Shown here: positions 10,549-42,958 of the stretch, in pieces | How positions within the stretch are numbered: the stretch's first letter is position 1 | How the letters are laid out: every line of letters starts with the position of its first letter | Source: Methanocellales archaeon | GTDB lineage: Archaea > Halobacteriota > UBA148 | Direction of reading: 5' to 3' | NCBI GenBank assembly: GCA_030019435.1 | Contig: JASEEV010000001.1 | Span: 28,064 to 92,063, forward strand | DNA: 64,000 nt | Notes under the pieces: generated by a model | Databases searched by the model: none | The model's input: only the letters and a program-made list of their open reading frames with translations | What the model was told of the DNA's origin: nothing | Program-made: the position numbers and the translations under genes

Positions 10549-10676
10549 CTCTTGAGATAAAAACCTGATGACCAGCTGGTGCTTCCATTGCTTGGGACTA
10601 GATTCTCCTTGTTAGTAGCGGATATTTTGGCAATGCATATTTAAGAAAGATGAGAGTAATATAGTGATGATGACCT

Positions 10677-10967
10677 GTGAAGAGTGATTTAGACCTAAAA
10701 ACCTATGAAAGAACCATCTATGAAAGAATCGATTTGTTTATTCAACACTTTCATGCTGTTTCTGATAAACTAGAAGATGAGGAAGACGTTAAATCGAGTA
10801 TTATCGACAAGTTTATAGACATTTTGGGTTGGGATTTAGGCGATCCTTTAGAGGTCAAAAAAGAGCAAAAAATCGAGGGCAGAAAAAAGGCAGATTATGC
10901 CCTCAAAGTCGATGGAAAACCAAAATTTAAAATACAAAGTCTATTGGGTAAATCATGGAACGGGTGA
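10677..10967 (+). pseudogene. Truncated fragment of a restriction enzyme/methylase N-terminal (HsdR_N-like) domain
   Basis: The 96-aa ORF has the Mrr-cat/HsdR_N-like core (ILGWDLGDP...EGRKKADYALKVDGKPKF). It ends abruptly and runs into a 190-bp AT-rich tract. Confidence 0.4.
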
Positions 10968-24360: not shown

Positions 24361-25923
24361 ATGAAAGTTCTCATCACGGACCCCATTTCTCAAGAGGGTA
24401 TTGAGAAGATTAAAAAAGAGATAGATGTGGACATAGCAACCGATCTGACCGAAAAAGAGCTGATAAAACGAATCAAGGATTATGACGCGCTCATCGTCAG
24501 GAGTGGAACAAATGTAACAAGAGAAGTCATAAATGCTGGCGTTCGGCTGAGAGTTATAGGACGAGCAGGTGTCGGCGTGGATAACATCGACGTGGATGTT
24601 GCCACTGAGAAGGGCATCATCGTCCTAAACGCCCCAGAGGGAAACACCATATCTGCAGCAGAACACACCATTGCAATGATACTTGCATTGTCGAGAAACA
24701 TACCCCAAGCTAATACGTCGCTAAAAAGAGGAAAATGGAGCAGGGGCAAGTTCATGGGCACTGAAGTTCAAGATAAAACTCTTGGAATAATAGGGCTTGG
24801 AAGGGTCGGTGCCGAGGTTGCGAAAAGGGCGCATGCGCTGGGAATGCACATACTTGCATGCGATCCGTTCATACCTGTAGAGAGAGCTGAAAATCTTGGA
24901 GCCTCACTGGTGGGAATTGATGTGCTATTAGAGAGAGCAGATTATATAACGATTCACGCTCCACTCACAAAAGACACGTATCACATGATAAGCGATGCAC
25001 AATTTGGGATGATGAAGAATGGAGCAAGGATCATAAACTGCGCTAGGGGTGGCATCATCGACGAGGGTGCACTGCTCCAAGCCATCAAAAGGGGAAAGGT
25101 TGCAGGTGCAGCACTAGACGTATTTGAGAATGAGCCCCCAGAGGGCAGTCCTCTGTTGGATCTGGATGAAGTTATCGTGACTCCTCATCTGGGAGCCTCG
25201 ACGCAAGAGGCGCAGGTCAACGTTTCCATTGCAGTTGCAGAAGGCGTACTAAATGCAATAAAAGGCGAGCCAATCAGAAATGCGGTCAACATGCCCTCTA
25301 TTAAGGCAGAAATAAGGCCGTACTTGACGTTAGCTGAAAAATTGGGGCGACTTTGTGCGCAGTTGGTGGATGGCTGGATAAAGCAAATTGAGGTTGCATA
25401 TAGCGGTGATATCGCAGAAAAAGAGACAGGGGCGCTTACGATTGCTGTGTTAAAAGGCATATTAGATCCAATACTGGAGGAACCGGTTAACTTCGTAAAT
25501 GCGCCCATGTTAGCGAAGAACAGAGGAATTAAGGTCATAGAAAGCAAGGTTGGCACAAGCGAGGATTTCACAGGACTGATCACCGTCTCCGCAAAGACAC
25601 CTAGAGAAGAGAAAAGCGTTGCTGGGACATTATTTGGAAAAAAGGATGCCAGGATCGTGCGAATTGACTCTTATAGGGTAGATGCAGTACCATCTGGTTA
25701 TATGTTAATTGCCTCTCATATCGATAAGCCTGGAATGATCGGGCGAGTCGGAACCATTCTAGGAGAGAACAAGATCAATATTGCGGGAATGCAAGTTGGA
25801 AGAGAGTTCATCGGTGGCAACGCAGTGATGGTGCTGAACATAGATAGTGCGGTCTCAGATAAGATATTAAAGCAGATAAAAGCGATTGAGGGCATACAAG
25901 ATATCAAGCTCGTGACACTCTAG
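24361..25923 (+). CDS. serA: D-3-phosphoglycerate dehydrogenase with C-terminal ACT domain
   Basis: NAD-binding GIIGLGRVG, catalytic RG...H segments, about 520 aa with ACT tail. Confidence 0.9.
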
Positions 25924-26537
25924 CTTTGCTCAACGAGTTCCGCAAATGCTAGATTGCCGGAGATTTTTTTGATCTTAGCTTTGACGATGCTACCTTTAGC
26001 GACATTTGGAACAAATATCGTGTATTTATCCATCTTAGCTATGCCGTCTCCCTTTCTGCCAACCGCATCGATCCTAAGCTCATAGACTTCACCTTCTTGG
26101 ACCGCTTTTTTTGTCTCCATCCTAATTCGCCGTTTTTTGACCGGGCGGTGCCCTCCGCATGCATCACACCTTAACATCAAAATGCGCTCGCTCTTGATCA
26201 GATGGGTATCAGGTCTTCCACACTCTGAGCATATCACGTATTCCTCGACATAATCATCTATCTGTGACTTGAGGACATCAGCTGAGAAACTCCCCTGAAA
26301 TATCGCTCTGCTTCCCTCGATCTTCCCAGCAGTCCCAAGCTCTTGCAACAAGAACTTCATGAGATGGTCCACATCTCTATTCAAAACATCAGCGATTTCT
26401 CCGAAGTTATCTAGAACGGTCGTCCTACCCTCCGAAAATGTCTTTGGAGGGGGCACCACAAACCTAGATTTCTCGGTCACTATACCTGGGATTTGTCCTA
26501 GTGCCCGATCCAGAAGTGCTTCATAATCTTCCATCAC
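25920..26537 (-). CDS. eif2b: Translation initiation factor 2 subunit beta fused to a C-terminal TRAM domain
   Basis: N-terminal 140 aa is aIF2beta (C4 zinc ribbon CSECGRPDT...CDACGG). C-terminal about 60 aa ([40 protein letters not shown]) is a TRAM-like beta-barrel. Confidence 0.7.
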
Positions 26538-26542
26538 ATCAC

Positions 26543-27061
26543 CTATGAAACCAACTCAGCACCCTTTTCTACAACTATTCGATGTGGTGTGGGTAGCTTA
26601 TTGCCTGCCCTCCTCAACGCATCCTTGGCCTGGGGAAAATGCTGAGGATGTACCCCCAAACTCATGATCTTCTGTCCTTTGTGGACTCTAGCTGCCGTTC
26701 CGACCGTTTTACCAAAAGACCTTCGCATTCCATCTGATACCCTATCGGCACCAGCACCGGTTGCTTGTTTGTTTTCCCTGAGGACCTGATGGGGGTATGT
26801 CCTGAGCTTCAGGTGGAAGTTTAAGCGTCCTACATCTCTGAGCAAAAACCTGTTTGCAGAAATGCGAGCTGACTCCAGAGCGCTGTCCCTGATTTGGCAG
26901 GCTTCCTCTGCTATCAAGGTCAGTTGTACTGGGAAGTCCTCCGTCAGATTCCCCATGTCAAACTGAACGATCTTGCTCCCTGGGATGCCGCCCATGTACT
27001 CTCGGTGCGTATATGCTCTGTCCTTTAGCTTCCGGTACATGCTCGCTGGTTTTCTAGCCAT
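26543..27061 (-). CDS. rpl10e: 50S ribosomal protein L10e (uL16)
   Basis: [12 protein letters not shown]-terminus and conserved uL16 core; start set at the conserved Met. Confidence 0.85.
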
Positions 27062-27080
27062 ATGGACCACTTCAATTGAC

Positions 27081-28052
27081 TTATGAGCTTATAAATCTTA
27101 TCGATGCCCCTTTATTTCTTGCTCTTACCCTCATGCATTTTCCCCTTTCACCCAAGTGCTCTTCGATGGCGTTTTTTACCTCTGAGGGAGAGTCCGTAAT
27201 GCCGTAAACAAGAGGGCCAAATGAGCTCATTCCTGCCCCCTCTGCCCCGCTCTGGAGCATGACATCCATGATTTCCCTAGCTTGGGGCAGGAGCTCAACT
27301 TCTCTTCGCTTGAAGCCAATTTTTTGAATTCGATTGATGGCGGATCCAAAACCATGCAAGTCCTCTTCGATCAAAGCGGGCAGTAGCTCCATGAGAATGA
27401 TGTGCGAGAGAGCTTGCACCTCTCCTAGGGGAATTGGGCATTCTTCCTGAAATATGTTCACCTCGCGCATGCCAGATGCTCCTTTAAGATGCGGAATCGC
27501 TAACACGATATCCCAGTCTGGAAAATCATGATGCAATAGCACGGGAGGCGGTGGAGCACGACTGGCTGCTGATGGCATGAAACCTTTCTCATGGAATTTG
27601 TGCCCGCCATCAAGGATGAATCCCCCTTTCTCGAATGCAGTGACGCCTATGCCAGATGTTCCCCCCCTTTTGACGATCTTTGCCATCTCCCTGACAGACA
27701 GCCCAAGATCATAGAGCATGTTGGCAGCCATTCCCCCTGCGAGAGATGCCTGTGTGCCAGAACCAAGTCCTATATGAGGGGGGATGTCCTCCTCGATGAC
27801 CATGTGGACACCTCCATGATTTTTGGCTATGAGCTCTGCGCTCTTCCTTATGCGTTCTGAGAGTGCGCTTTTGCCCTCCACACTCACTTCATCAGCTTTT
27901 TCAGCTGAGATCACAAGGGAAGGATGATCTAGAGCGATGCCGATGCCACCATCTACTCTGCCTAGCGCCCCATTCAAATCAATCAGTGTGATGTGTATTC
28001 TCGATGGCGTCCTGATTCTGATCATCTGCTTATAATTGGCTTGTGGGGGCAT
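27081..28052 (-). CDS. mptG: Beta-ribofuranosylaminobenzene 5'-phosphate synthase-like (GHMP-kinase fold)
   Basis: N-terminal [11 protein letters not shown]...GRVDGGIG and GHMP-like Gly-rich segment GLGSGTQ; about 320 aa. Confidence 0.55.
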
Positions 28053-28145
28053 AAGTTTTCTGGAGTTGTGAAAATGGTGCTAACCGTCATCACGATTTTA
28101 ATCCATATTTCTCTCATAAATCCAGAAGAAAAAGGAATAAATCCT

Positions 28146-28394
28146 TTATCGCCTTCTTCTAAGCAGATATGCAACTGCTGCTATCGTGAGAATTGCGAAT
28201 ACTGCCTCAAATCCTGGTACTGGTGGCGATGGCGTTGGTGTTGGAATGGATTCGATACTATTGTTCCCTTTAGATGCAATTAATATACATTTTTCCGGTC
28301 GCACAAAAGGATTAACACACGTCTCACAATATGTTGGATTGGATGTTAGGAGAACGGCCACAAGGGATGTAACAGTCTCTGGATCTCCAGCCAA
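28146..28394 (-). pseudogene. Orphan C-terminal fragment carrying a PGF-CTERM archaeosortase sorting signal
   Basis: Ends TPTPSPPVPGFEAVFAILTIAAVAYLLRRRR (Thr/Pro linker, PGF, TM helix, Arg tail). No ATG and no signal peptide; in-frame stop 23 codons upstream; 480 bp of non-coding DNA upstream. Confidence 0.4.
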
Positions 28395-28668
28395 TGCGGC
28401 TTTGGAAAGCCGTGGGCATCGTGCAAACCCTTCTCCTCTGCTACAAAATCCCTGGAGGGATTAATAGAACAGACTCCAAACCGCATTGGTTTCTGGTTCA
28501 CGTGGGCGAATCACCATCATGAGCCGCACTCCTGTGCAACGCATAAACCACCCTTTCCTTTTTCACCTCTAAACTCATAAGTACGCCCACAGACCATAAA
28601 AGGCTTTGGATTTTTGAAAGTTTTTTTGATAATACGTTCAAATTTAGTATAAGAATATGTTAAAATAT

Positions 28669-28682
28669 GTCAAATATTTGAC
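28669..28682. promoter_or_regulatory. Perfect 14-bp palindrome GTCAAATATTTGAC in AT-rich promoter region
   Basis: Read directly from the sequence; flanked by duplicated AATATGT. Confidence 0.3.
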
Positions 28683-28873
28683 CGAGATTCTTGTCCTTAG
28701 AATATCTTGTCATGAGTTTCCTTGTTTAATGTCGTCTGTCCATCGACTCCAGCGACAAAACCCACTCTTTCCCCCTTCAGCCACATATAGCAAACGCAAA
28801 GATTATTAAAATGAGAATCAGCTCACGAACAAGCAGAAAGATATATTTCTCGATACGATAGTTTTAACATCAA

Positions 28874-29767
28874 ATGAACCTGACAACTAATGCAGCAGGC
28901 TTGAAACTGAGAAATCCCACCATATTAGCTGCTGGAATCCTTGGTAGCACTGCTGCCTCGCTAAAAAGAGTGATACGAGGCGGTGCAGGTGCAGTCGTAA
29001 CCAAATCAATAGGTGTTGTGCCAAGAGAAGGTCATCCAGGACCAGTGATGATAAAAACAGAGCATGGCTTTTTGAACGCAATCGGCTTAGCCAACCCTTC
29101 ATATCATGAGTTCATACATGAGTTAAAGAAGGCGAAGGGAGAAGTTCCTGTCATTGCGAGCATATTTGGCAGCAATGCAGAGGAGTTTAGAGAGGTTGCA
29201 TTAGGGTTGAGCGAGGCTGATCCAGACGCCTTTGAGTTAAACGTAAGCTGCCCACATGCTGAGGGATATGGTATTTCCCTCGGGAGAGACCCCAAGGCGG
29301 TCGAGAATATCACCAGAGCCGTTAAGAAGGCGGTGGATGTTCCAGTCTGGGTGAAACTTGCACCTCTTGCAGATGTCATCGAGACGGGATTAGCTGCTCA
29401 AAGTGGTGGGGCTGAAGCCATTGTTGCCATAAACACGATACCAGCCATGGCAATCGACATAGAATCCTGCTTTCCAGTCTTGGGCAATATCAGTGGAGGG
29501 CTTTCTGGAGCGGCGATAAAGCCAGTTGCCCTAAAATGCGTCTATGATCTATACGATGCACTGGACATTGATATCATAGGCGTCGGTGGAATTTCCTCTT
29601 GGAGGGATGCCATCGAGTTCATCATGGCTGGTGCCTCTGCCATAGAAATCGGATCAGCTGTCTACGACGATATAGAGGTGTTCCGACATATCTCGGACGG
29701 AATCTCACGTTATCTACAAAAGAACGAATGCAGCTTAGAGGACATTCATGGAGTTGCGGTGAGATGA
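28874..29767 (+). CDS. pyrD: Dihydroorotate dehydrogenase catalytic subunit (class 1B)
   Basis: FMN-binding TIM barrel motifs (NAAG, GPVMIKT, SCPH, GGIS); 297 aa. Confidence 0.9.
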   Translation: MNLTTNAAGLKLRNPTILAAGILGSTAASLKRVIRGGAGAVVTKSIGVVPREGHPGPVMIKTEHGFLNAIGLANPSYHEFIHELKKAKGEVPVIASIFGSNAEEFREVALGLSEADPDAFELNVSCPHAEGYGISLGRDPKAVENITRAVKKAVDVPVWVKLAPLADVIETGLAAQSGGAEAIVAINTIPAMAIDIESCFPVLGNISGGLSGAAIKPVALKCVYDLYDALDIDIIGVGGISSWRDAIEFIMAGASAIEIGSAVYDDIEVFRHISDGISRYLQKNECSLEDIHGVAVR

Positions 29768-30534
29768 TGCCAATGGACGCTGAGATAACGAAGATCGTAG
29801 ATGAAACGCCATCTACTAGAACGTTCTTTTTCGACTTTTTCCTGGAGCACATCCCAGGACAATATGTGATGGTCTGGATTCGGGGAGTGGATGAGATTCC
29901 GATGTCTCTCTCGTATCCCAATGCCATCACAGTCCAGAAAATAGGTGATGCCACCTCAGCCTTGTTCGAACTGGGTAGAGGCGACTCGATAGGAGTAAGA
30001 GGACCACTCGGAAACGGTTTTTCGCTGAAGGGAAAATCGATTCTGTTGATTGCTGGTGGAGTTGGAGCCGCACCGTTAGCGGCGTTGGCAGAGAGGGCAA
30101 AGTGCGATGGGGCAAAGGTCGAGACGATTCTGGGCGCAAAGAGCGCTGACGAGCTATTGTTTGAAAAGCGTTTCATGAATGCAGGAGATTTGCTGGTAGC
30201 AACAGATGATGGCTCGCTTGGGCATCATGGACTCGCCACTGAGTTGGTTGGCGAACTAGACCTAACAAAATATGATGCGATCTATTCATGTGGTCCAGAA
30301 AAGATGATGTTTCGCGTTTTGAACATGGCAGAAGACGTTGGCATGTCATCTAGAGCACAATTCAGCCTTCAGCGCTATGTCAAATGTGGCCTGGGCATCT
30401 GTGGGACATGCTGCATCGATCCTTCTGGACTGCGCATATGCAGAGATGGACCCATATTCAGTGGGGATCAGTTGATAGGCACGGAGTTCGGGCAATATAT
30501 GAGGGACGCAAGCGGAAGGAGGGTGAAGCTATGA
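29764..30534 (+). CDS. pyrK: Dihydroorotate dehydrogenase electron-transfer subunit (FAD/[2Fe-2S])
   Basis: Start MMPMDAEI overlaps the pyrD stop (ATGA). C-terminal Cys cluster CGLGICGTCC. Confidence 0.85.
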   Translation: MMPMDAEITKIVDETPSTRTFFFDFFLEHIPGQYVMVWIRGVDEIPMSLSYPNAITVQKIGDATSALFELGRGDSIGVRGPLGNGFSLKGKSILLIAGGVGAAPLAALAERAKCDGAKVETILGAKSADELLFEKRFMNAGDLLVATDDGSLGHHGLATELVGELDLTKYDAIYSCGPEKMMFRVLNMAEDVGMSSRAQFSLQRYVKCGLGICGTCCIDPSGLRICRDGPIFSGDQLIGTEFGQYMRDASGRRVKL

Positions 30535-31094
30535 AAAAATTGAGGGGTGTATATGGCGAAAAATCTAAAATGCATAAAGAGTTGTTTGATTGGCTCAAAG
30601 ATGAGAATCTTCCAGAAAAAGAGATACCAAGAGATGAAAAAGAGTGGTTCAAAGAGATAGCTGTCGGCTTCAGTAGATTGGAGATGGAAAAACCAGACCT
30701 ATCTGAATATTATAAAAGAGCTGAGGAGAGAATAAAAGATGAGAATCTAAAACGTATCATGAGAAAACAAAAGGAACTTGGATTAATAGATTATGATTTA
30801 TTCAGGGGAATTGTTCAGAGAAAGTGGAGTGACAAATATGGATTTTTAGTTCCAAGTTTAATCCAATCTATTGATTTCATATGTATAGTAGGGAAAAGAG
30901 CTTGGATTCTTGAGGGCAAAAAAGAGCCTGACCACACCGCCATAGGTCAAGTTCTTGTCTACAAAGATTTATTTGAGCAGGATTATCCAGATTTTGAGGA
31001 GGTTAAAATGGGAATTGTGTGCAATGAGCTACATCCCCTTAATGAGCCTACTGCAAGAAAACTAGGTATTTCTATCTTTAAGAAGAAAGAATGA
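30531..31094 (+). CDS. Hypothetical K/E-rich protein with C-terminal PD-(D/E)xK-like module
   Basis: 187 aa from MKKLRG (ATG overlaps the pyrK stop). C-terminal SIDFICIVGKRAWILEGKK resembles a restriction-endonuclease-fold core. Local AT-rich composition. Confidence 0.4.
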   Translation: MKKLRGVYGEKSKMHKELFDWLKDENLPEKEIPRDEKEWFKEIAVGFSRLEMEKPDLSEYYKRAEERIKDENLKRIMRKQKELGLIDYDLFRGIVQRKWSDKYGFLVPSLIQSIDFICIVGKRAWILEGKKEPDHTAIGQVLVYKDLFEQDYPDFEEVKMGIVCNELHPLNEPTARKLGISIFKKKE

Positions 31095-31107
31095 GGATTG
31101 AAGGATT

Positions 31108-33501
31108 ATGAAAAAGGAATATGATCCCAATGCAGTGGAGGCAAAATGGCAGAAACAGTGGAATAAAGATGACCTATACCACTTTGATCCAGAGGCAAGT
31201 GGTCCAATATACGTCCTCGATACTCCGCCGCCGTTTACCTCCGGCTCTCTACACATGGGCCATATATTGAATCACACATGGATTGACATTGCCGCTCGAT
31301 ATAAAAGAATGAGAGGCTATAATGTTCTGCTGCCGCAAGGCTTTGACTGTCATGGCTTGCCCACCGAGCTGCAGGTCGAGAGGTTGGGCGTATCAAAAGA
31401 TGATAGGACAAAATTTAGGGATGCATGTGTCGCCTGGACTGAAGATAGCATAGCCAGAATGAAGTCACAGTTCAAGAGACTGGGCTACTCCGCTGACTGG
31501 TCGAGGGAATACAGAACCATGTCCACTGACCATATAATCAAAGTCCAGTTGTCCCTACTCAAATTTAATGAGCTAGGATTAATCTACCGAAGAAAGCATC
31601 CGGTCCACTATTGTTGGAACTGTAATACAGCGCTGGCAAAAGCAGAACTTGGGTATGTGGAGCAGGAGGGTGTTCTCACCTACATAAAATTGGATGTCGA
31701 AGGAGAGCACATAGCCATCGCCACAACTAGGCCAGAGTTGATGTGCGCATGCGTAGCGGTCATGGTTCATCCAGATGATGAGAGATTCCGTAGATATGTG
31801 GGGAGAAAAGCACGACTACCCATCTACGGGAGAGATGTTCCAATAATCGCAGATGAAGGGGTTGATATGGAATTTGGGACCGGCGCAGTATACGTCTGCA
31901 CATATGGCGATGAACAGGATCTGGCATGGCAACAAAAGCATTCATTACCAGTGATATCTGCGATAGACCAAAATGGAACCATGACAAAAGCCGCTGGCAA
32001 ATACAAAGGGCTAAGCATAGCTGAATGCCAAGCGCGGATCATAGAGGATTTGAAGAAGCTGGGCAGCATCATCAAACAGGAGCCGATAACTCATAGGGTC
32101 TTGATCCATGCTGAGCGATCCGAATGCCAGAGACCTATTGAGCTTATACCAACACCACAATGGTTCATCAGGATCAAAGACCGCACTGGAGATGTGATTG
32201 AAGCTGCTAAGAAGATGAATTGGTACCCATCGTACATGCTCCAACGACTCATTGATTGGGCAACCTCCCTGGAGTGGGATTGGGTCATTTCCAGACAAAG
32301 GGCATTTGGAACTCCCATTCCGTTCTGGTATTGCTCCAAGTGCGAATCCACGATAGCACCTTCTCCGAACAAGCTACCAGTAAATCCTGCTATAGATGAG
32401 TCACCGGTCAAAAAATGTCCACATTGTGGCTCGAAAGACATCTTAGGCAGTAGGGATGTGTGCGACTGCTGGGTCGATAGCTCGATCTCTCCGCTCATGG
32501 CAAGCAACTGGATGGGAGATGACTTCGATGAGCTCTATCCAACCTCTCTTAGGCCACAGGGATATGAGATCATTCGGACATGGCTGTTTTACACGATCTT
32601 CCGTTGCCTCATTCTAACTGGAGAGGCGCCATTCGAGGATATTTTAATCAATGGAATGGTGCAAGGACCAGACGGCAGAAAGATGTCCAAAAGCTTAGGC
32701 AATGTCATCGAGCCAGAGGAGATCGTGGTGAAGTATGGCGTCGATCCCGTCAGACAATGGGCTGCTACCGCCTCGCTGGGAGAAGATTATCCGTTCGAAT
32801 GGAAGGAGATCGTGTATGGGAAGCGATTCCTGACGAAGATGTGGAACATCGTTCGGTTCAGCACTCCTCATTATTCTACTATGAGCTCAAAAAAACTGAG
32901 CATCATCGATCAATGGATGCTTAGCAAGCTAAACAGGTTGATTCGGGAAGTCACAGCTGATCTGGATAGATATGAGTTCAAGACGCTCCAGAAGATCAGG
33001 GATTTTGCCTGGAAAGACCTGGCGGATAACTACATCGAGATGATAAAGTACAGGTTATATGGCGATGACGTAGAGGCGAAAGAAAGCGCGCAGTATACGC
33101 TGAGCACTGTTATCGATACAATAGTGCTATTGTTATCGCCGTTCATTCCGCACTTTACAGAGGAGGTTCATTCTTGCTTTGGGGAGGGGAGCATCCATCT
33201 GCGCAGATGGCCTGTTGCAGATAAAACGCTGGTAAACGATGAGGTTGAGAGAGGCGGTGAACAGATCAAAGACGTGATCTGTGCCATAAGAAGATATAAG
33301 TCAGAGAGAGGTATGGCACTAAATGCTGAAGTGGAAAGGATCGAGATATATGCCCCTGATATTAGCTGGCTTACCCAAGGCATAAACGACCTCAGGGGAA
33401 CTACATGGGCGAGGAACGTTGAGGTTATAAAAGGAGAACCAGAGAAGAGGAGAGGAGATGTCCTCCAGGTGGGAGATGTGACGATTGTGATCGAGAGATA
33501 A
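31108..33501 (+). CDS. valS: Valyl-tRNA synthetase (class I)
   Basis: PPPFTSGSLHMGH (HIGH-class motif with the ValRS-type PPP prefix), DCHGLP, KMSKS; 797 aa. Confidence 0.7.
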   Translation: MKKEYDPNAVEAKWQKQWNKDDLYHFDPEASGPIYVLDTPPPFTSGSLHMGHILNHTWIDIAARYKRMRGYNVLLPQGFDCHGLPTELQVERLGVSKDDRTKFRDACVAWTEDSIARMKSQFKRLGYSADWSREYRTMSTDHIIKVQLSLLKFNELGLIYRRKHPVHYCWNCNTALAKAELGYVEQEGVLTYIKLDVEGEHIAIATTRPELMCACVAVMVHPDDERFRRYVGRKARLPIYGRDVPIIADEGVDMEFGTGAVYVCTYGDEQDLAWQQKHSLPVISAIDQNGTMTKAAGKYKGLSIAECQARIIEDLKKLGSIIKQEPITHRVLIHAERSECQRPIELIPTPQWFIRIKDRTGDVIEAAKKMNWYPSYMLQRLIDWATSLEWDWVISRQRAFGTPIPFWYCSKCESTIAPSPNKLPVNPAIDESPVKKCPHCGSKDILGSRDVCDCWVDSSISPLMASNWMGDDFDELYPTSLRPQGYEIIRTWLFYTIFRCLILTGEAPFEDILINGMVQGPDGRKMSKSLGNVIEPEEIVVKYGVDPVRQWAATASLGEDYPFEWKEIVYGKRFLTKMWNIVRFSTPHYSTMSSKKLSIIDQWMLSKLNRLIREVTADLDRYEFKTLQKIRDFAWKDLADNYIEMIKYRLYGDDVEAKESAQYTLSTVIDTIVLLLSPFIPHFTEEVHSCFGEGSIHLRRWPVADKTLVNDEVERGGEQIKDVICAIRRYKSERGMALNAEVERIEIYAPDISWLTQGINDLRGTTWARNVEVIKGEPEKRRGDVLQVGDVTIVIER

Positions 33502-33531
33502 AGTTTGCAGTCAATCTTCGTTTTTACGAGA

Positions 33532-34257
33532 TTAAACAAATCCCTTTATCTCCTTTTCGAAGTAGGGCTTAAAATTCGTTGCGTCCAGCAGGGATTGCAG
33601 AAAATCCTTTTTGATTTCACATGTCATTAATACCTTGATGTCCTGCTCGTCCTTCCATATCTTGCTGTTTATGTACGCTCTTTGGAGTGGGGAGAACTCT
33701 GCTCCTCTCCTCAGATCATACCTTCTATCTGCTAATGCCTTAACCTTGTACAATAGCAATACCTCGAGTAATGGCACTCTAGCAACCACATCTTGTATTT
33801 TCCATTCTTTGGAATGCTTCATGCCCAGTTCCCAAGGAATCTCCACATCAGCATTCTCGTGTAGAATGTTTTTATCAACCAATGAACAAGCATCCAGATA
33901 TATTCTTTCTATGCCCCTAGAGGTCTTGACCTCTTTATAGAACTCCTTTGTAAACACACCACTGCTTTTGTAACCAGCTGCACGATAATATGGGAGTAGA
34001 ACCCTGTGAGTACTCTCTCTAGAGGGAAAGATGATGTCGATATCCCTTGAACCAAGACCTGGAACATAGGAGAAGACTGCCCAACCACCTATAATGATTG
34101 GATGATAGCCATATTGTTTGTTTATCCATCTTACGAATCTAACGAGCTCTTTGTAGGACTCTGTGAGAATTTCATCATCGTAATATTCATCCAATTTCCA
34201 GCCCCCACAATTCTTTGAACAGATCCTTTGCTGCGTAGATTTTATTGTCGCATGCAA
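33532..34257 (-). CDS. AbiEii-like nucleotidyltransferase (DUF1814-type toxin)
   Basis: IIIGGWAVFSYVPGLGSRDIDIIF matches the Pol-beta NTase hG[GS]...DhD core, and a third acidic residue lies downstream. The ORF overlaps the upstream partner by 71 nt in another frame. Confidence 0.55.
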   Translation of the reverse strand: MHATIKSTQQRICSKNCGGWKLDEYYDDEILTESYKELVRFVRWINKQYGYHPIIIGGWAVFSYVPGLGSRDIDIIFPSRESTHRVLLPYYRAAGYKSSGVFTKEFYKEVKTSRGIERIYLDACSLVDKNILHENADVEIPWELGMKHSKEWKIQDVVARVPLLEVLLLYKVKALADRRYDLRRGAEFSPLQRAYINSKIWKDEQDIKVLMTCEIKKDFLQSLLDATNFKPYFEKEIKGFV

Positions 34258-34777
34258 GATCGATAACCGTTCTGAGCTTGGTTGTGATTTCTATTTTGTC
34301 TTTAACGATATCTGTTTCAAATTCCATGTCAGGTTTGTATATATGAAGAACGGTTTTCCCACCACTATATGGGGCAAAAACCTCTGTCACCTTTTTGATA
34401 TCCCTGCTGTATATGCACACCCTATCCGTTCTCAGATAAGGCGAGTATCTTTCCAGAGCGGAATCTAAGCAAAGTACGCTCCCTTTTGGCGTATTATCTA
34501 TGATATCCCCTGTTGACCCTCTAACCGGAATGGTCTTGATGAGAAGTTCTTTCATGCTTCTAAACAATGGAAAAATACTTATTATTCCTGCAGGATCAAT
34601 AACACTATACCTCCTCGTTGTCTTCTCGATAAAGTTCCTAGATAACAACCAATGAGTAACTGAGTTTATCTGTCCTATCGATACATCTGTTTTTTTGTGA
34701 ATGCCCAACTGAGTGAACTCTAGGGAACTTAAAACCGCCTTGATCACCATATAGGTCTTGGGACTTGTCGGATTCAT
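34187..34777 (-). CDS. AbiEi-like putative antitoxin/transcriptional regulator (N-terminal wHTH)
   Basis: 196-aa ORF directly upstream of the NTase; N-terminal helix-turn-helix-like segment LGIHKKTDVSIGQINSVTHWLL. Confidence 0.4.
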   Translation of the reverse strand: MNPTSPKTYMVIKAVLSSLEFTQLGIHKKTDVSIGQINSVTHWLLSRNFIEKTTRRYSVIDPAGIISIFPLFRSMKELLIKTIPVRGSTGDIIDNTPKGSVLCLDSALERYSPYLRTDRVCIYSRDIKKVTEVFAPYSGGKTVLHIYKPDMEFETDIVKDKIEITTKLRTVIDLACDNKIYAAKDLFKELWGLEIG

Positions 34778-34933
34778 CTCAACACCAGAACAATAATTGT
34801 TTCGTTATATAATGAAACTTTCGGTATATAGTGAAAATAAGATTCTTTGATGCCTATTTTAATCTTCGTTATTTATATCTGTCCATCAAACATTTTTTCA
34901 GTTAACTTTATAAATAATGCTGTTATCCTTCTG

Positions 34934-35503
34934 ATGAATAATATGATCCAAAAATTGAATAATAATCAAATCGAGATCGTCAAGTTCCTGCGTGAAAATG
35001 GGGAACGTTCCATAAGAGCCATATCGCAGGAGCTTGGTCAGGCTTATCCAACCACATGGAGGAACATGGTTAAGCTAAATAGTCTTGGCATCGTGGAGTT
35101 CAAAATTGTCGGAAAAAGCAGGATGTGCTCTTTGAACAAAAAAGCCATTTCCTATACAACTGATGTGGCTGAGGATATGGCTTCCAAGCTGGATTATAAA
35201 GTACCACCTGGACTCGTGGTTGCGGTTGCTAGAGACTGGTTGTTTGGGGAGATTTTGATGGTTGCATTTATGAATGAAGAAGCGGTGATGAAAACATTAG
35301 TAACTGGCGAGGTGCACTACTGGTCTCGCTCTAGGGAGAAGTTGTGGAAGAAGGGTGAAACGAGCGGAAACATCCAAATCCTGAAGGATGTGCACGTGGA
35401 CTGCGATGCTGATACCTTGCTCTTGGACATCGAGCAAGAGGGAGTGGCATGTCACACCGGCAAGAGAAGTTGTTTTTACAGGACATTTGATATGATTAAA
35501 TAA
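34934..35503 (+). CDS. hisI: Phosphoribosyl-AMP cyclohydrolase with N-terminal winged-HTH domain
   Basis: The C-terminal 110 aa is HisI (HYWSRSREKLWKKGETSGN...DCDADTLL...ACHTGKRSCFY). The N-terminal 75 aa is wHTH-like (IVKFLRENGERSIRAISQELG...LGIVEF). One continuous frame. Confidence 0.7.
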   Translation: MNNMIQKLNNNQIEIVKFLRENGERSIRAISQELGQAYPTTWRNMVKLNSLGIVEFKIVGKSRMCSLNKKAISYTTDVAEDMASKLDYKVPPGLVVAVARDWLFGEILMVAFMNEEAVMKTLVTGEVHYWSRSREKLWKKGETSGNIQILKDVHVDCDADTLLLDIEQEGVACHTGKRSCFYRTFDMIK

Positions 35504-35530
35504 TAGTAGTCATCATATTCATGTGGGGGA

Positions 35531-35893
35531 ATGAAGTTGAAAGAGGTAACCGAGATATTTGAAAACACTGGCTCCAGGCTGATAAAGGGCATCTTGGAGA
35601 GAGGAGGAGTAGTTCTGGGAATAAAAGTGGAAAACTTTGCTGGCGTTCTGGTGGAGGACAAGGTATACGCAGATGGTCTGGCAAAAAAAGTGGAAGGGCA
35701 AACAGGAGCGAAGGGCTACATATCCACAGACGAGCTCCCAGCCTATGGAATATCAAAAGAGGAGAAGGAGGCAGTGGAGGCTGCATTTGATAGCAAGGAA
35801 AACGATGTCGTCATACTGGTGGTAGATGAGGAGGAAAGAGCAAAGAAGGCACTGGATGTCATAGAAGAGGAGATCAAAATTAGATTGGGCTGA
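35531..35893 (+). CDS. Conserved hypothetical protein (120 aa, acidic)
   Basis: ORF with plausible spacing to hisI; no motif recognised. Confidence 0.4.
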   Translation: MKLKEVTEIFENTGSRLIKGILERGGVVLGIKVENFAGVLVEDKVYADGLAKKVEGQTGAKGYISTDELPAYGISKEEKEAVEAAFDSKENDVVILVVDEEERAKKALDVIEEEIKIRLG

Positions 35894-35897
35894 GCCC

Positions 35898-36449
35898 TCA
35901 TCTCTCCATCAAATTCGTCTCGATCAGCCTTTCGTGCAGCACGTGCAATATCTTGGCATCTTGGATGCAATGATCCTGTACTGCATCATAGTTTCCAGCC
36001 ATCCACTGCTCGATCACCCATTTTCCACTCTCACAAGGCTTTTGGTAAGGGATACCAAGATAGGCGCACACATCCTCAAGTTTTCTTGATTTCAGCAGTA
36101 GGTTACTCCTGACAACATAGTATAGATCGATGTGCTTGTCCCTTCCTACAAAGTTCTGTCTAAAACGCCTTATTTCATCGTACATCTTCCAATCATAGAG
36201 CCTGGTGATGATCATGGGATAATCGAAAGAGTAGCCGTAATAAGAAAGGATCTTGGAGTCCAGATGCCTCACCCTTAGATCGCAGAGATCTGCTATCAGC
36301 CGTCTGAGCAGCCCAGCCTCCTCTTCTGGGGTCTTTATGATGTTTGAATATGTTATGCCCTCTTGTCCTACGATGGCGTAGCACACGATTATGCCATCAT
36401 CAGCATGTAGGGATGTCGTCTCTATGTCCAATCCTATGTGATATGTCAT
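35898..36449 (-). CDS. DEDD-family 3'-5' exonuclease (DnaQ-like)
   Basis: Exo I motif GLDIETT and downstream H/D motifs (YDAVQDHCIQD). Confidence 0.65.
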   Translation of the reverse strand: MTYHIGLDIETTSLHADDGIIVCYAIVGQEGITYSNIIKTPEEEAGLLRRLIADLCDLRVRHLDSKILSYYGYSFDYPMIITRLYDWKMYDEIRRFRQNFVGRDKHIDLYYVVRSNLLLKSRKLEDVCAYLGIPYQKPCESGKWVIEQWMAGNYDAVQDHCIQDAKILHVLHERLIETNLMER

Positions 36450-37051
36450 CGCTCCCCCAAGTATTTGATGATTTTATCCATGACTTCTTCTTCCATCTCA
36501 TCCAATTCTCGTTCTGCGTCGATTTTGACAAAACGCTCCGGCTCCTCATCAGCCAATCTGAGATAATTGTGTTGTACTTTTCCCAAGAATTCGATTTCCT
36601 CGAATTTTGTTCTTTTGCGAGCACAGCGAGTTAATGCTACGACAGGATCAACCAAGAGCAAGAACGTCAGATCCGGCTTTATGGTCCATTCATCATGGAT
36701 TTGTTTGATCCATCCGATCGGATCGTCAATACGATCTGCAAGCAGAGCACCTTGATATGCATATTGGCTGTCTGAGTAACGATCAGATATGACGATTTTT
36801 CCTTGGCGCAATGCCGGCTGGATCCTGACAACATGCTCCGCATGGTCTGCTACGAAAAGAAATAGCTCCACCAACGAATCCGTATCGGAACATATCGATC
36901 TGCGAACGACATTTCCAATCCATGTCTGGGTTGGCTCTTTTGTGAAAACCACCTCATAATCACCTCTGAGATGTTCTACAACACGCTTTGCTAAGGTGCT
37001 TTTACCAGAACCATCGATGCCCTCAAACGTTATCAACCGACCTTTCATCAC
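36446..37051 (-). CDS. tmk: Thymidylate kinase
   Basis: P-loop ITFEGIDGSGKST and DRY-like DRYSDS motif; 201 aa. Confidence 0.9.
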   Translation of the reverse strand: MMKGRLITFEGIDGSGKSTLAKRVVEHLRGDYEVVFTKEPTQTWIGNVVRRSICSDTDSLVELFLFVADHAEHVVRIQPALRQGKIVISDRYSDSQYAYQGALLADRIDDPIGWIKQIHDEWTIKPDLTFLLLVDPVVALTRCARKRTKFEEIEFLGKVQHNYLRLADEEPERFVKIDAERELDEMEEEVMDKIIKYLGER

Positions 37052-37172
37052 CTCACAACTTTACTTAGGGGCAAAAAGCGTTTCGGTCTCGAAAGCGTAT
37101 ATGTTTGTACATTGTAGTACAATGGTACAAAACTTTAAATAGCAATTGAACTGAGAACGGAAAGGTGATCAG

Positions 37173-38531
37173 ATGGAAGAAACGAAAATCTTGTTGGATG
37201 AAAACGAGATACCAAAAAAATGGTACAATATCCAGGCTGATCTTCCGACACCATTGGATCCATACCTAAACCCGGCGACAAAGGAGCCGGTCGGTCCGGA
37301 GGACTTGGCACCCATATTTCCCATGGAATTGATCAAGCAAGAGGTAAGCACGGAACGATGGATTCCCATTCCTGATGAAGTTCGAGATATCTATCGACTA
37401 TGGAGACCTACACCACTATACAGAGCCCTGCGCCTAGAGAAGGCTCTAAAAACGCCAGCCAAGATCTACTACAAATGGGAAGGCGTCAGCCCACCAGGAA
37501 GCCATAAGCCGAATACAGCGGTGGCACAAGCATACTACAACATGAAGGAAGGTGTCGAGAGGATCACAACTGAGACGGGAGCGGGGCAATGGGGCTCTGC
37601 ACTAGCCTTTGGCACATGTCTCTTCGACTTGGATTGCACGATATACATGGTGAGGATAAGCTATGAGCAAAAACCATATCGCCGAGTACTGATGGAAACA
37701 TGGGGAGCTGAAGTTTTTCCGAGTCCGTCCCAGAGGACAAATGCTGGGAGGAAAATACTGGAAAAAGATCCAGAGACGACGGGGAGCCTGGGAATAGCCA
37801 TAAGCGAGGCTGTAGAGGATGCTGCAACACACGATGACACGAAATATTCATTAGGCTCTGTGCTTAACCATGTCCTGTTGCACCAGACCGTTGTGGGCTT
37901 AGAAGTGAAAAAGCAGTTTGAAATAGCAGAGGAGTATCCGGATGTCATGTTTGGATGCGTCGGTGGTGGAAGCAATTTTTCTGGAGCCTGCTTCCCATTT
38001 GTCGGTGATAAGTTAAGGGGTGAGAGACCAGATCTGCAAGTGATATCTTGCGAGCCAACCGCGTGTCCAACATTGACGAAAGGGCTCTATAAGTATGATT
38101 TTGGAGATACGGCAATGCTAACGCCGCTTCTCCTAATGTACACGCTTGGACACGATTTTGTTCCAGCTCCAATACATGCTGGCGGTCTAAGATATCATGG
38201 CGATGCTCCATTGCTGTGTAAGCTCACCAATGAAGGTGTCATGGGCGCTGTTGCATACCATCAAAATGAGGTGTTCGAAGCTGCGCTCACGTTTGCACGA
38301 GCTGAGGGCATTGTTGTAGCACCAGAGACCGCACATTGCGTAAAAGCCACAATAGATGAAGCAAGAAGATGTAAAGAAACTGGTGAAGAGAAGACGATTT
38401 TCTTCGCCAACTCTGGACATGGGCACTTCGATTTGGCGGCATATGATGCGTACCTTGCTGGAAAATTGGTGGACTATGAATACCCTGCAGAACTGATCAA
38501 GCGTGCACTGGCTAATTTACCGAAGGTGTGA
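37173..38531 (+). CDS. trpB2: Tryptophan synthase beta chain, type 2 (TrpB2)
   Basis: About 450 aa with the N-terminal extension typical of TrpB2 and a PLP-lysine region. Confidence 0.8.
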
Positions 38532-38613
38532 ATCCACTTCCTGATTTTGATGTCTCCCTTAAACCAACCAAAAGTTCATTAGGGAAAAGAGTGTTATTGT
38601 TCCGAAAAGATAG

Positions 38614-40071
38614 GTGGAGGACGTGTTCACGAAGAAACTAGATGCCCCCATGGGAATTACTTTTGATGATGTTTTGCTCCTGCCAAATGAGTCACGAGTC
38701 GAACCAGACCAAGCAGATGTTACATCACGAGTGTCGAGAGACGTTTCGCTTAACATTCCCATTGTAAGCGCGGCAATGGACACCGTGACAGAGGCAAACA
38801 TGGCAATCGCCATGGCACGTGAAGGGGGCATAGGCGTAATTCACCGAAATATGAGCAAAGAGCAACAGGTAAATGAGGTGCATGAGGTAAAGCGGGCTGA
38901 TGAACTTCTGGTGAGAGAAGTGGTGACGGTCACTCCAGACTGTTCGGTCAAAGCGGTCTGGCGTTTGATGACGGAGGAGGATGTCGGCGGTGTTCCTGTC
39001 GTCGATAAAAAATTGGTGGGGATTGTAAGCAGAAGAGATGTTCTTCCCATCGTGGAGTCTGATCCCACGAAAGAAGTTAAAGAGGTGATGACGAGGGATT
39101 TGATCACCGCATACGAGAATGTCTCATTGGAAGAGGCGCTCGACAAAATGTATGAACATAAGGTGGAGCGACTTCCTGTTGTGGACGAAAAAGGTAGTCT
39201 CAAGGGCATAATCACCATGCAGAACATTCTTCAGCGAAGGCAGTATCCTATGGCGAGCAGGGATGAGAACGATCGCCTCATAGTAGCGGCGGCAGTAGGT
39301 CCTTTCGACGTCGAGAGAGCGGTCGCACTGGATAAAGCTGGCGCAAATGTGCTGATGATAGACTGTGCGCATGCGCACAACATGAACGTCGTAGATTCTG
39401 CTAGGATGATCAAGAAGAAAGTTAAAGCGGATGTGGTAGTGGGCAACATTGCAACGGCAGAGGCTGCTGAAGAATTGGTTGACTTCGTGGATGGAATCAA
39501 GGTAGGCGTAGGCCCAGGATCTATTTGCATAACAAGAGTGGTAGCTGGAGTTGGTGTTCCACAGCTGACCGCCATAGCAGAGGTGGCAGATGTCGCATCT
39601 AAGCACGACATACCAGTGATCGCTGATGGAGGGATTAGATATTCCGGCGATATAGCTAAAGCCATCGCCATAGGCGCTGATGTTGTCATGCTGGGTAATT
39701 TGTTGGCAGGAACGGATGAGGCTCCTGGGCGAACGATCACCATCAAGGGAAGACGGTACAAGCAGTACAGGGGCATGGGCTCACTGGGAGTCATGTCTGG
39801 TGGAGAGAGTGTGGACCGATACCTCGGCAAGACGAAGTTCGTGCCAGAAGGCGTGGAGGGTGCAATTCCGTACTCTGGAACCGTCGGAGATACGCTTTAT
39901 CAATTGGTCGGTGGGCTCCGCTCATCCATGGGTTATGTTGGCGCACAGAGCATAGAAGAGCTGCACAAAAAGGCGCGATTTATCAGGATCACACCATCTG
40001 GATATTATGAGAGTCACCCACACGATGTTTTGATCACAGATGAGACGCCGAACTATCCGATAGGTGAGTGA
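38614..40071 (+). CDS. guaB: IMP dehydrogenase with CBS pair
   Basis: [10 protein letters not shown]-terminus, CBS pair, catalytic loop [20 protein letters not shown]. Confidence 0.9.
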
Positions 40072-40124
40072 ACACAAGCTTTATATACAATCATCACTAA
40101 CCTAAGGTTAGTAACCTAAAGTTA

Positions 40125-40763
40125 TTGATATACATGGATTCAGCTCAGCTACTGGACATCTTAGGCAATGAAAATCGAAGGAGGATACTTCAACTACTCT
40201 CGCACAAGCCATGCTACGTCTCTGAGATCGCAGATCGCCTGAGCGTAGGTCCTAAAGCCATCCTTGACCATTTGGACATGTTGGAGAGAGCAGGTCTCAT
40301 TGAATGCTCGAATGAGCAGCGGCGTAAATACTTCCATATCGCAGGTAATGTCCAACTGGAGGTTTCCGTCTCACCCCATTTATATGGCGTGGAGACAAAT
40401 TCCATCATGATCAGCGTTGAAGAGCAAAGGAGGCTAAGGCAAGAGTACAGTTCGATGGCATTGCTAAACCTGAACGATGAATTACGGCGATTGCACTCAT
40501 TACGCAGAGAACTGATGCTCGCACAGCGATCCACTCAAGCGAGGATCGCCGAGCTTATGAATCTATGCGCTGAAATGATCGACCAGATCATATCAGACCA
40601 CCTAGAAGCTGAGATCTTATTGGCTTTGGTCACGGGAACTAGAAGAGTGGAGATGCTTTCAGAGGAGTTGAACATCCCCGCAAACAAAATCGATAAAGGA
40701 CTTCATCAGTTGAAAGAAAAAGGAATGATCATAGAAAGACAAAAAAAGTGGTATATTAGGTGA
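40125..40763 (+). CDS. ArsR/HSR1-like HTH transcriptional regulator with C-terminal second wHTH
   Basis: N-terminal ArsR-type HTH ([22 protein letters not shown]) and C-terminal helix-rich domain. Immediately upstream of cdc48-hsp20. Confidence 0.6.
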
Positions 40764-42958
40764 GAAAAATGTCAGAAGAAGTCACGCTAAGAGTGGCGGA
40801 AGCATATCACAGGGATGCTGGAAGGGGAATTGCTAGAGTCGACATGGCCACCATGAAAAAGCTGGGACTCGTGAGTGGCGATACCATCGAGATACAGGGA
40901 AAACAGACAGCAGCAGCCATCGTCTGGCCTGGATACTCTGACGATACGGGCAAGGGAATTATCAGGATAGATGGCAATATTAGGAGCAATGCAGCCGTTG
41001 GTATCGATGACAAAGTTAAAATACGCAAGGTGGAGGCAAAAGAGGCAACCCGCATAACGATTGCGCCGACGCAGCCCGTCAGAATTGTTGGAGGCGAATA
41101 CTACTTACTTAGAATATTGGAAGGACGTCCTGTGATCAAAGGACAAAAAATAAGGGTGGAGATGCTTGGTAATCCCCTCACCTTTATAGTGACGGCAACG
41201 CAGCCATCTGGAATTGTGGTGACGTCAAAAAACACACAGATTGTGCTACAAGAAAGGCCAGTCGAGGAACTAAAAAGGGCAGTCCCACAGATAACGTACG
41301 AGGATATTGGTGGATTAAAACGTGAGATCGCTCTCGTGCGTGAGATGATCGAGCTTCCGCTGAGACATCCAGAGCTATTTCAGAAATTGGGCATCGATCC
41401 TCCCAAAGGTGTTTTACTCCATGGACCCCCTGGGACCGGCAAAACGATGATTGCAAAGGCTGTCGCCAACGAGACGGATGCATACTTTATACCCATCAGT
41501 GGTCCAGAGATCATGAGCAAATTCTACGGCGAGAGCGAAAAGCAACTCCGCGACATCTTCGATGAGGCTGAAAAGTGTGCTCCATCGATCATATTCTTGG
41601 ATGAGCTGGATGCAATTGCTCCAAAGAGAGAGGAAGTAACCGGCGAAGTCGAGCGTCGCGTGGTAGCACAACTCCTCGCGCTCATGGATGGACTGAAAGC
41701 AAGAGGAGAGGTGATCGTGATAGGTGCTACAAACAGACCAAACGCGCTTGATCCTGCCTTGCGAAGAGGCGGAAGATTCGACAGGGAGATCGAGATTGGA
41801 ATCCCAGATCGGAATGGACGACACCAGATTCTACAGGTCCACACAAGAGGGATGCCTCTTTCAGAGGACGTTAACCTGAAGGAGCTTGCGGACATAACCT
41901 ATGGTTTCGTAGGGGCGGACATAGCAGCACTGTGTAAGGAGGCTGCGATGCACGCACTGCGTAAAATCTTGCCGGAAATCGACATGGAAGCAGAAATCCC
42001 CCCTGAGGTCATTGAAAAATTAATTGTCACGAGGGGGGACTTCCATGAGGCTCTGAAGAGCATCGAGCCATCAGCGATGAGAGAAGTGTTCATCGAAGTT
42101 CCCAAGGTAGAATGGAAGGATATCGGGGGCCTTGAGAAGGCCAAACAGGAGCTGATAGAAGCGGTGGAGTGGCCGCTCAAGTACCCAGAGGTGTTTGAGA
42201 CGCTCCATACAGGACCTCCAAAGGGCATACTCCTGTTTGGTCCACCTGGAACTGGCAAGACGATGCTCGCAAAGGCGGTTGCCAATGAGAGTGATGCAAA
42301 TTTCATCTCCATCAAAGGTCCAGAGTTGCTTTCGAAGTGGGTTGGTGAATCAGAGAAGGCAGTACGAGAAATCTTCAGAAAAGCAAGACAATCAGCCCCA
42401 ACGATAATATTCTTAGACGAGCTGGACTCCATAGCACCCACGCGAGGGATGAGCGCCGACTCTAGGGTGACAGAAAGGGTCGTCAGTCAGATACTCACCG
42501 AGTTGGATGGATTAGAGGAGCTAAGAGATGTGGTAGTTTTGGCTGCAACCAACAGACCAGATATGGTCGATCCTGCACTTCTACGTCCTGGAAGATTGGA
42601 TCGATTGATCTACATCCAACCTCCTGATGAGGCGGAGAGGGAGAAGATTTTCAGCATCCACTTAGAGGGCAAGCCTCTTTCAAAGGACATTGACATAAAA
42701 GGGTTGGCGAAAAATACAAGTGGATACGTGGGCGCAGACATCGAGGCAATATGTAGAGAGGCAACGATGCTCGCCCTACGAGAATTCATTCAATCTGGAG
42801 TGGAGCAAGAACATGTAAAAGAGGGGGCCAAAAACATCGTGATAAAAAAGGAGCACCTTGATGCCGCGATGAAAAAGGTCAAACCAACGGTATCCAGAGC
42901 CACCTTCGAAAAGTTTGAGGACATGGCTGAAGATTTCGTAAAATATGCATATGCATGA
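40760..42958 (+). CDS. cdc48: CDC48/VCP-like AAA+ ATPase (two AAA domains)
   Basis: N-domain plus two Walker A/B sets (GPPGTGKT twice; DELD twice); 732 aa. Confidence 0.9.

Follow-up and report, generated by a model that had tools for sequence, protein, structure and literature searches.

A pair of adjacent genes, here termed A and B, was analysed in a stretch of 64,000 nucleotides (nt) from a Methanocellales archaeon (contig JASEEV010000001.1, positions 28,064 to 92,063 of the forward strand), the whole of which is referred to as the window. The window matches a 132-kb contig of a Methanocellales metagenome-assembled genome (MAG) at 100 % identity. An earlier sequence-only reading had described the pair as an AbiEi/AbiEii-like toxin–antitoxin (TA) or abortive infection system, with a winged helix-turn-helix (wHTH) antitoxin gene upstream of a Pol-beta/DUF1814 nucleotidyltransferase (NTase) gene and an unusual 71-nt overlap between them in different frames. 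Both open reading frames (ORFs) were confirmed on the minus strand, A at 34187-34777 (196 amino acids (aa), ATG start) and the longest ORF of B at 33532-34257 (241 aa), and both are real, conserved genes. The pair had also been described as AT-rich and lying between valS and hisI, which agrees with a GC content of 0.40-0.41 across the pair versus 0.46-0.50 in the flanks and with the identity of the two neighbours: the best PDB sequence match of the valS product is T. thermophilus ValRS (E=8e-120), and the hisI product matches the Pfam PRA-CH family (E=1.7e-35). The genes and the features of their junction are as follows.

34187-34777, minus strand: gene A, putative antitoxin and autorepressor, 196 aa; NCBI MDI6902190.1, 'hypothetical protein'.
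33532-34194, minus strand: gene B, putative DUF1814-superfamily nucleotidyltransferase toxin, 220 aa from TTG 34194; NCBI MDI6902189.1, 'hypothetical protein'.
34187-34194, minus strand: 8-nt junction TTGGATGA, in which the B TTG start overlaps the A TGA stop.
34255-34257, minus strand: upstream in-frame TTG, the source of the 241-aa ORF and of the apparent 71-nt overlap; an unsupported start.
34202-34206, minus strand: GGGGG run, Shine-Dalgarno-like, 7 nt upstream of the B TTG and inside the conserved C-terminal L-W-G codons of A; its function is presumed.

The start of B was predicted from its reading frame and from homologous loci. Between the upstream stop codon and the conserved N-terminal helix, the B frame contains only two start codons, TTG 34257 and TTG 34194. 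Homologue N-termini start at, or align from, the second of these, and the NCBI call for B is the 220-aa form. In the closest relative (locus L009, approximately 88 % nt identity as estimated from the alignment), the upstream TTG reads TCG, so that the start overlapping the A stop is the sole usable one there. Among close relatives the overlap of the longest ORFs ranges from 8 to 71 nt, whereas the 8-nt TTGnnTRA start is constant. Junction classes were counted over 70 non-redundant junctions, of which 19 distinct junctions had the 8-nt overlap TTGnnT(G/A)A, 17 a 4-nt ATGA overlap and ten, from the Nitrosopumilaceae and relatives, a 10-nt overlap. On this comparative sequence evidence B is taken to start at TTG 34194 with an overlap of 8 nt, and the 71-nt overlap to be an artefact of longest-ORF calling. 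The 8-nt junction is likely a site of translational coupling.

A functional 71-nt overlap would involve a start at TTG 34257, a programmed +1 frameshift producing an A–B fusion, or a recent frameshift that split a single gene, and we consider it highly improbable. In its favour, the 63 nt preceding TTG 34194 are free of stop codons in the B frame and begin with a TTG, the run of five G lies inside the overlap, and some gene callers give B homologues N-terminal extensions (232-242 aa). However, these extensions resemble one another because they are a +1-frame reading of the C-terminus of A, which is strongly conserved (KDLFxxLWGxxxG), and A and B are each modelled as complete, confident single folds. 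The TCG in the closest relative, the variable longest-ORF overlap beside a constant junction and the 220-aa NCBI call likewise argue against it. None of the 301 retrieved family proteins holds both the A and B domains, and this, together with the junction evidence, leaves programmed frameshifting, a fusion protein and a recent frameshift mutation unsupported. Of the explanations offered in the sequence-only reading, a non-ATG start is thus retained, as TTG 34194 with its 8-nt overlap, and the two frameshift options are not. The comparison of overlap lengths with orthologous pairs that it had suggested returned mostly overlaps of 8, 4 or 10 nt, and for AbiE such short overlaps are nothing unusual.

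A G-rich element (TGGGG or GGTGA/GGTGG) was found upstream of the TTG in all 19 junctions of the 8-nt class. In the window (34202-34210) and the homologous junctions of the 8-nt-overlap subfamily, the Leu-Trp-Gly codons of A (TGGGG) are fixed 7 nt upstream of the TTG, and this one sequence may double as an A protein motif and a B ribosome-binding site. The thaumarchaeal copies have no G-run, and have an ATG start with 4- or 10-nt overlaps.

The catalytic potential of B was assessed from the conservation of its motifs, with invariance scored over 51 diverse B-family members. The following positions were identified.

34027-34098, minus strand: motifs I and II, I-I-G36-G37-W-A-V, 13 residues, S49-R50-D51-I-D53; G36, G37, S49, D51 and D53 invariant in 51-60 diverse members.
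34048-34050, minus strand: Ser49, candidate phosphoacceptor, invariant in the B family.
34036-34044, minus strand: catalytic Asp pair D51/D53, invariant.
33892-33894, minus strand: Asp101, invariant, on a central beta-strand (E94-104 of the model); probable third metal-binding carboxylate, a role assigned by inference.
33724-33747, minus strand: motif III, K150-V-K-A153-L-A-D-R157, equivalent to the published KLxAaxxR; K150, A153 and R157 invariant.
33640-33654, minus strand: motif IV, K181-D182-E-Q-D185, equivalent to the DUF1814-specific +DxxD; K181, D182 and D185 invariant.

The NTase core recognized in the sequence-only reading, IIIGGWAV…GLGSRDIDIIF, is therefore present in B, and on alignment the catalytic Asp pair and all four DUF1814 motifs are invariant. 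Motifs I–IV of AbiEii were defined and mutated by Dy et al. 2014 as hG[G/S]-x(9-15)-DhD, KLxAaxxR and +DxxD (PMC3985639). The aromatic position of motif III is a Leu in B.

A search with the B-family profile recovered 1161 relatives. Three family members, P0114, P0116 and P0127, match the B profile at E values of approximately 1e-57 to 1e-59, have approximately 40-42 % identity to B and score 27.1, 26.8 and 22.9 bits respectively against PF08843 (AbiEii), for which the gathering cut-off is 22.5 bits. The P0114 and P0127 matches cover profile positions 34-227 of 238 and the P0116 match only 128-221. Motifs I–IV and the relatives above the PF08843 cut-off indicate that B is a divergent member of the AbiEii/DUF1814 superfamily. 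Among close B homologues, 12 of 60 had weak Pfam AbiEii matches only (best E 0.0063), and the PADLOC AbiEii models match 4 of 51 B-family members; B falls just beyond the sensitivity of current models.

The predicted fold of B is closest to solved DUF1814-superfamily members: Pb27 (5uvd, score 13.8), MenT1 (8an4, 13.5), ANT(2'') (4xje, 11.6), MenT4 (6y56, 11.1), TglT/MenT3 (6j7n, 10.5), TM1012 (2ewr, 10.2) and JHP933 (4ok0, 9.8). With the exception of TM1012, these are the members of the DUF1814 superfamily as given in a 2026 preprint. An assignment of the pair to MNT-HEPN was set aside without a dedicated test, on the grounds that the partner is a wHTH protein and that motifs III and IV of B are DUF1814-specific.

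The domain content of A was determined from family profiles and a predicted structure, and consists of two parts.

34598-34762, minus strand: N-terminal TrmB-like (TrmB/MarR-type) winged helix, residues ~6-60.
Residues ~75-196 of A, minus strand: C-terminal alpha/beta domain, NTase-like fold without the catalytic motif.

The N-terminal wHTH noted in the 196-aa ORF was thus recovered and could be placed as TrmB/MarR-type. The C-terminal domain of the predicted structure matches TM1012 (8.6), ANT(2'') (8.5) and LnuA (7.8) over approximately 100 residues, and ANT(2'') and LnuA are also among the published neighbours of the AbiEi C-terminal domain. Neither the GG nor the DxD motif is present in A, which has CLDSAL...DRVCIY in the corresponding stretch. 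The possibility that this domain is a decayed paralogue of B was rejected at the sequence level (hhalign of the A-family against the B-family profile, probability 0.4 %). The A family is small; among 1.84 billion representatives it makes up 155 clusters (50 % identity). The PADLOC AbiEi models match up to 8 of 79 A relatives (best 2.5e-6), and no AbiEi family appeared in the Pfam tallies of 19 and of 79 A-family members, the latter covering the top 25 of 136 families. A Foldseek comparison of A with the PDB returned wHTH matches only, and there was no direct structural match of A to the solved AbiEi (6y8q) or to Rv2827c (1zel). A therefore has the AbiEi architecture, a wHTH followed by an NTase-like C-terminal domain, yet cannot be assigned to the AbiEi family.

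Some A-family proteins are extended. P0196 (543 aa) has a long C-terminal Rossmann-like extension, and P0220, P0232, P0239 and P0276 (330-373 aa) have an N-terminal extension of approximately 100-160 aa before the A module. None of these carries a B domain.

The distribution of the pair was determined by scanning one genome per GTDB species, which gave 80 loci, all archaeal. These include Thermoplasmata, Iainarchaeia, Micrarchaeota, Bathyarchaeia, Nitrosopumilaceae, Hadarchaeota, Thermococci, Halobacteriales and Methanomassiliicoccales. In approximately 88 of 91 archaeal loci, a set that also takes in Methanocellales, B is immediately preceded by a same-strand ORF of the A family, its end falling between -11 and +41 nt relative to where the B profile alignment begins, so that homologous pairs have the same partner rather than unrelated ones. 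The surrounding genes are unrelated between loci and include, for example, a Y1 transposase, an N6/N4 methyltransferase and a MazE-PIN pair. Six assemblies carry two diverged A–B copies: an Iainarchaeum, two Nitrosopumilus, an unclassified archaeon, a member of the Thermoplasmata and a member of the Bathyarchaeia (the locus pairs being L028/L073, L045/L084, L047/L074, L020/L027, L014/L023 and L053/L077). At one further locus, L088, a gap of 1.7 kb separates B from the A gene upstream, pointing to an insertion between the two.

In several loci (L009, P0295, L015/P0039, L057, L079 and L090) B is shortened or split beside an intact A. For L009 (JGI Ga0370355_1001085, 10611-10940, aligned to window 33532-34194) the pair is at the same position next to valS, with A and the operators described below intact and B deleted after approximately 68 codons, just past the DxD. 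In P0295 (MDI6859944.1, from a sister Methanocellales MAG) B ends at motif III (…LLLYKVKGISR*), as it does in P0039/L015 from the Thermoplasmatales (…LLIYSQSTAV*). These two independent breaks at the same spot reflect either recurrent inactivation of the toxin or assembly errors.

Upstream of A, two candidate operators were identified.

34800-34817, minus strand: O2, proximal operator candidate, 18-bp palindrome TTTCATTATATAACGAAA; TATA-like core approximately 31 nt upstream of the A ATG; conserved in L009 and L005.
34819-34836, minus strand: O1, distal operator candidate, 18-bp palindrome TTTCACTATATACCGAAA; 19 nt start-to-start from O2.

O1 and O2 are each centred on a TATA-like core and are arranged in tandem at -23 to -59 from the A ATG; the core of O2 probably overlaps the archaeal TATA box. 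Palindromes occur at the same position in homologous loci, with half-sites that co-vary between subfamilies, e.g. GTTCACTATATAGTGAAC, TATCGGTTTTTACCGATA and TTTCAGTAAAGAGTGAAA. Of 71 upstream regions of A, 22 contain the pattern TTTC-N8-12-GAAA, where shuffled sequences give 1.2±1.1. Perfect inverted repeats whose arms reach 7 nt or more were present at 59 % of loci, compared with 3.9 % of shuffles. Read from their sequence and spacing, the tandem palindromes are the putative signature of an autoregulated operator, and their position suggests occlusion of the TATA-binding protein (TBP) and transcription factor B (TFB). A third perfect palindrome, AACAATTATTGTT (34789-34801, minus strand), lies between O2 and the A ATG; it is neither palindromic nor conserved in L009 and was treated as probably due to chance. 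A scan for sigma-70 promoters and terminators gave counts at or below shuffle expectation, and the bacterial model is uninformative for an archaeon.

The pair was compared with characterized systems. It shares with the AbiE systems of S. agalactiae and L. lactis (COG5340-COG2253/DUF1814) an antitoxin gene in first position, a short start/stop overlap (4 nt for S. agalactiae abiEi/abiEii, PMC3985639; 8 nt in the window), a two-domain antitoxin composed of a wHTH and a C-terminal NTase-like core, inverted repeats in the promoter, motifs I–IV and a Ser/Thr two residues before the first catalytic Asp (T65-x-D67 in AbiEii, S49-R-D51 in B). Unlike AbiE, the window proteins are detected by no AbiEi or AbiEii hidden Markov model (HMM), the wHTH of A is TrmB/MarR-like with the solved AbiEi absent from its top structural matches, the promoter is not of the bacterial -35/-10 kind but has two tandem 18-bp palindromes on archaeal TATA-like cores, and the host range of the family is restricted to archaea. 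B also differs from AbiEii in its smaller size (220 aa, versus approximately 33 kDa with a His tag), in a G-to-D spacing of 13 rather than 15, in a motif II Arg at -1 rather than -4 and in approximately 13 extra residues between motifs III and IV. The AbiE class, called type IV in the sequence-only reading, has been reclassified as type VII in a 2026 preprint, and the older label is out of date.

For MenT1 (Rv0078A) of the M. tuberculosis MenAT system, T39-R40-D41 is mirrored by S49-R50-D51 of B. Of these MenT1 residues, T39 becomes auto-phosphorylated, R40 makes contact with the triphosphate and D41 is a Mg ligand (PMC11375011). MenT1 has only 15 % sequence identity to B, and its antitoxin MenA1 is small, unrelated to AbiEi and binds two toxins asymmetrically, in contrast to the 196-aa two-domain wHTH partner found here. 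PygAT, from island PYG1 of Pyrococcus yayanosii, is an archaeal and experimentally functional TA system in which PygA (208 aa) lies upstream of the NTase PygT (253 aa), and resembles the window pair when compared by size and order. However, PygAT is recognized by standard models (DUF4095/COG5340, COG2253), which the window proteins are not, and lies in an integrase-bearing island beside a tRNA gene, whereas the window copy has neither nearby. The stand-alone or minimal NTases Pb27, ANT(2'')-Ia, JHP933, LnuA and TM1012 differ in having no cognate wHTH partner and in not being TA systems, several of them acting on small molecules.

Taken with the gene structure, the 8-nt junction, the folds, the catalytic motifs, the operator-like repeats and the A–B linkage across archaeal phyla, the locus is probably a bicistronic TA module of the AbiE/MenAT kind belonging to a divergent, archaea-only and unannotated family. 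The core of the sequence-only reading, an AbiEi/AbiEii-like pair with a wHTH antitoxin gene upstream of the NTase gene, accordingly holds in fold, motifs, gene order and conserved partnership. The HMM confirmation that it had proposed was not obtained: no model in Pfam, NCBIfam or PADLOC, those for AbiEi and AbiEii included, reaches its threshold for A or for B of the window (B in both its 241-aa and 220-aa forms), and only more distant B relatives reach the Pfam AbiEii cut-off. This weighs against the TA interpretation, as do several other results. At two alignment depths, searches of PDB sequences with the B-family profile gave no NTase, MenT or AbiEii match, and those with the A-family profile gave wHTH regulators only and no AbiEi; the single PADLOC AbiEi match that was inspected (P0235, 15 bits) covers residues 16-123, mainly the wHTH. 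The fold neighbours of B include the non-toxic small-molecule NTases ANT(2'') and LnuA. There is no tRNA gene near the pair (none in 25000-42000) and no integrase adjacent to it, and no copy of the module was found among PLSDB plasmids or IMG/VR viral contigs. Finally, toxicity, tRNA targeting, A–B interaction, Ser49 phosphorylation and operator binding are all properties that we infer.

If A were an ordinary transcription factor controlling a non-toxic NTase with a small-molecule or otherwise benign substrate, of the ANT(2'')/Lnu type, the pair would not be a TA system. This is distinctly unlikely, as three invariant features of B are hallmarks of DUF1814/MenT proteins, namely motif III (KxxAxxxR), motif IV (+DxxD) and the S/T-R-D phosphoacceptor motif, and a plain repressor would have no need of the extra NTase-like domain of A. 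The strict short-overlap linkage to one partner across phyla and in unrelated contexts, the multiple copies per genome and the repeated loss of B with retention of A also argue against a benign NTase. A pair of AbiE-like ancestry in which A neutralizes B without contact (classical type IV) or by sequestration alone, with Ser49 catalytic or structural, is rather unlikely, though less so. It is consistent with the report that MenT4 and MenA4 show neither interaction nor phosphorylation (2026 preprint), with the dispensability of MenT1 T39 for antitoxicity (PMC11375011) and with the finding that A matches neither AbiEi nor MenA3 in structure or sequence, which means that the loop mechanism is not transferable. 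On the other side, published work reports strict conservation of this Ser/Thr in COG2253/COG4849 families and its phosphorylation in MenT1, MenT3 and AbiEii, and Ser49 is invariant in the B family.

Under the preferred interpretation as an AbiE/MenAT-kind TA module, free B would add nucleotides to the 3'-CCA ends of tRNAs and so arrest translation, by analogy with MenT1/3/4 and S. agalactiae AbiEii. A would bind B through its C-terminal domain and would either sequester it or trigger auto-phosphorylation of Ser49, two residues before D51, the second route corresponding to type VII. A would also bind the palindromes, block TBP/TFB and repress its own operon, and B, translated from a weak TTG start by reinitiation after termination on A, would be made in smaller amounts than A. 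The module may act as an addictive or abortive-infection-type selfish element, moving between archaeal genomes and often losing its toxin.

A more specific version would make the pair the first described member of an archaea-specific type VII TA family (at least 1161 toxin sequences and approximately 155 antitoxin clusters, from DPANN to Thaumarchaeota). Its antitoxin would belong to a separate family unrelated to COG5340, having reached the wHTH plus pseudo-NTase design by convergence or by radical divergence. Such an antitoxin would control a MenT1-like toxin by Ser49 auto-phosphorylation and repress on the archaeal TATA box, with its Trp-Gly codons serving as the toxin ribosome-binding site. 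We regard this full combination as a tentative and somewhat doubtful proposal.

Several neighbouring genes were also noted. The hisI gene (window 34934-35503, plus strand), divergent from A, encodes an in-frame N-terminal winged-helix domain of approximately 80-90 aa (HVO_A0114 1.4e-7, HTH_24 1.3e-5). The product is a single 189-aa protein in the NCBI call, with the same form in sister MAGs, and the wHTH part lies in the AT-richest stretch (GC 0.33-0.35); this could be a regulator–enzyme fusion or a captured island gene. Directly upstream of valS, an AT-rich ORF (window 30384-31094, plus strand, probable start near 30531, GC 0.36-0.40) was matched neither by Pfam nor by PDB sequences. Judged by eye only, the residues IDF…ILEGKK in its C-terminal part resemble a PD-(D/E)xK nuclease motif, and the ORF may be another inserted gene. 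Window 35898-36449 (minus strand) encodes an RNase H-superfamily/PolB-like 3'-5' exonuclease (RNase_H_2 1.3e-12, DNA_pol_B_exo2 2.5e-8) between a GAD-domain gene and tmk, and is missing from the syntenic L009 stretch. The other flank of the L009 pair is without both the wHTH-hisI and the exonuclease genes, and has instead a PC4-domain gene and a 74-aa membrane-like ORF.

As a practical matter, a long out-of-frame overlap between longest ORFs calls for a comparison with homologues first, and only then for a frameshift hypothesis. COG5340-DUF1814 modules have already been described as ubiquitous in bacteria and archaea, so the kind of module found here is ordinary; the new part is a divergent archaeal lineage missed by standard models. 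Two 'hypothetical' genes become interpretable, together with more than 1000 archaeal relatives missed by current Pfam, NCBIfam and PADLOC models, which implies that AbiE-type modules are under-counted in censuses of archaeal defence and TA systems. With its invariant Ser-Arg-Asp site, the family may allow the recent proposal that antitoxins induce auto-phosphorylation of MenT and AbiEii to be examined in archaea, and possibly also TATA-box repression by a TA antitoxin.

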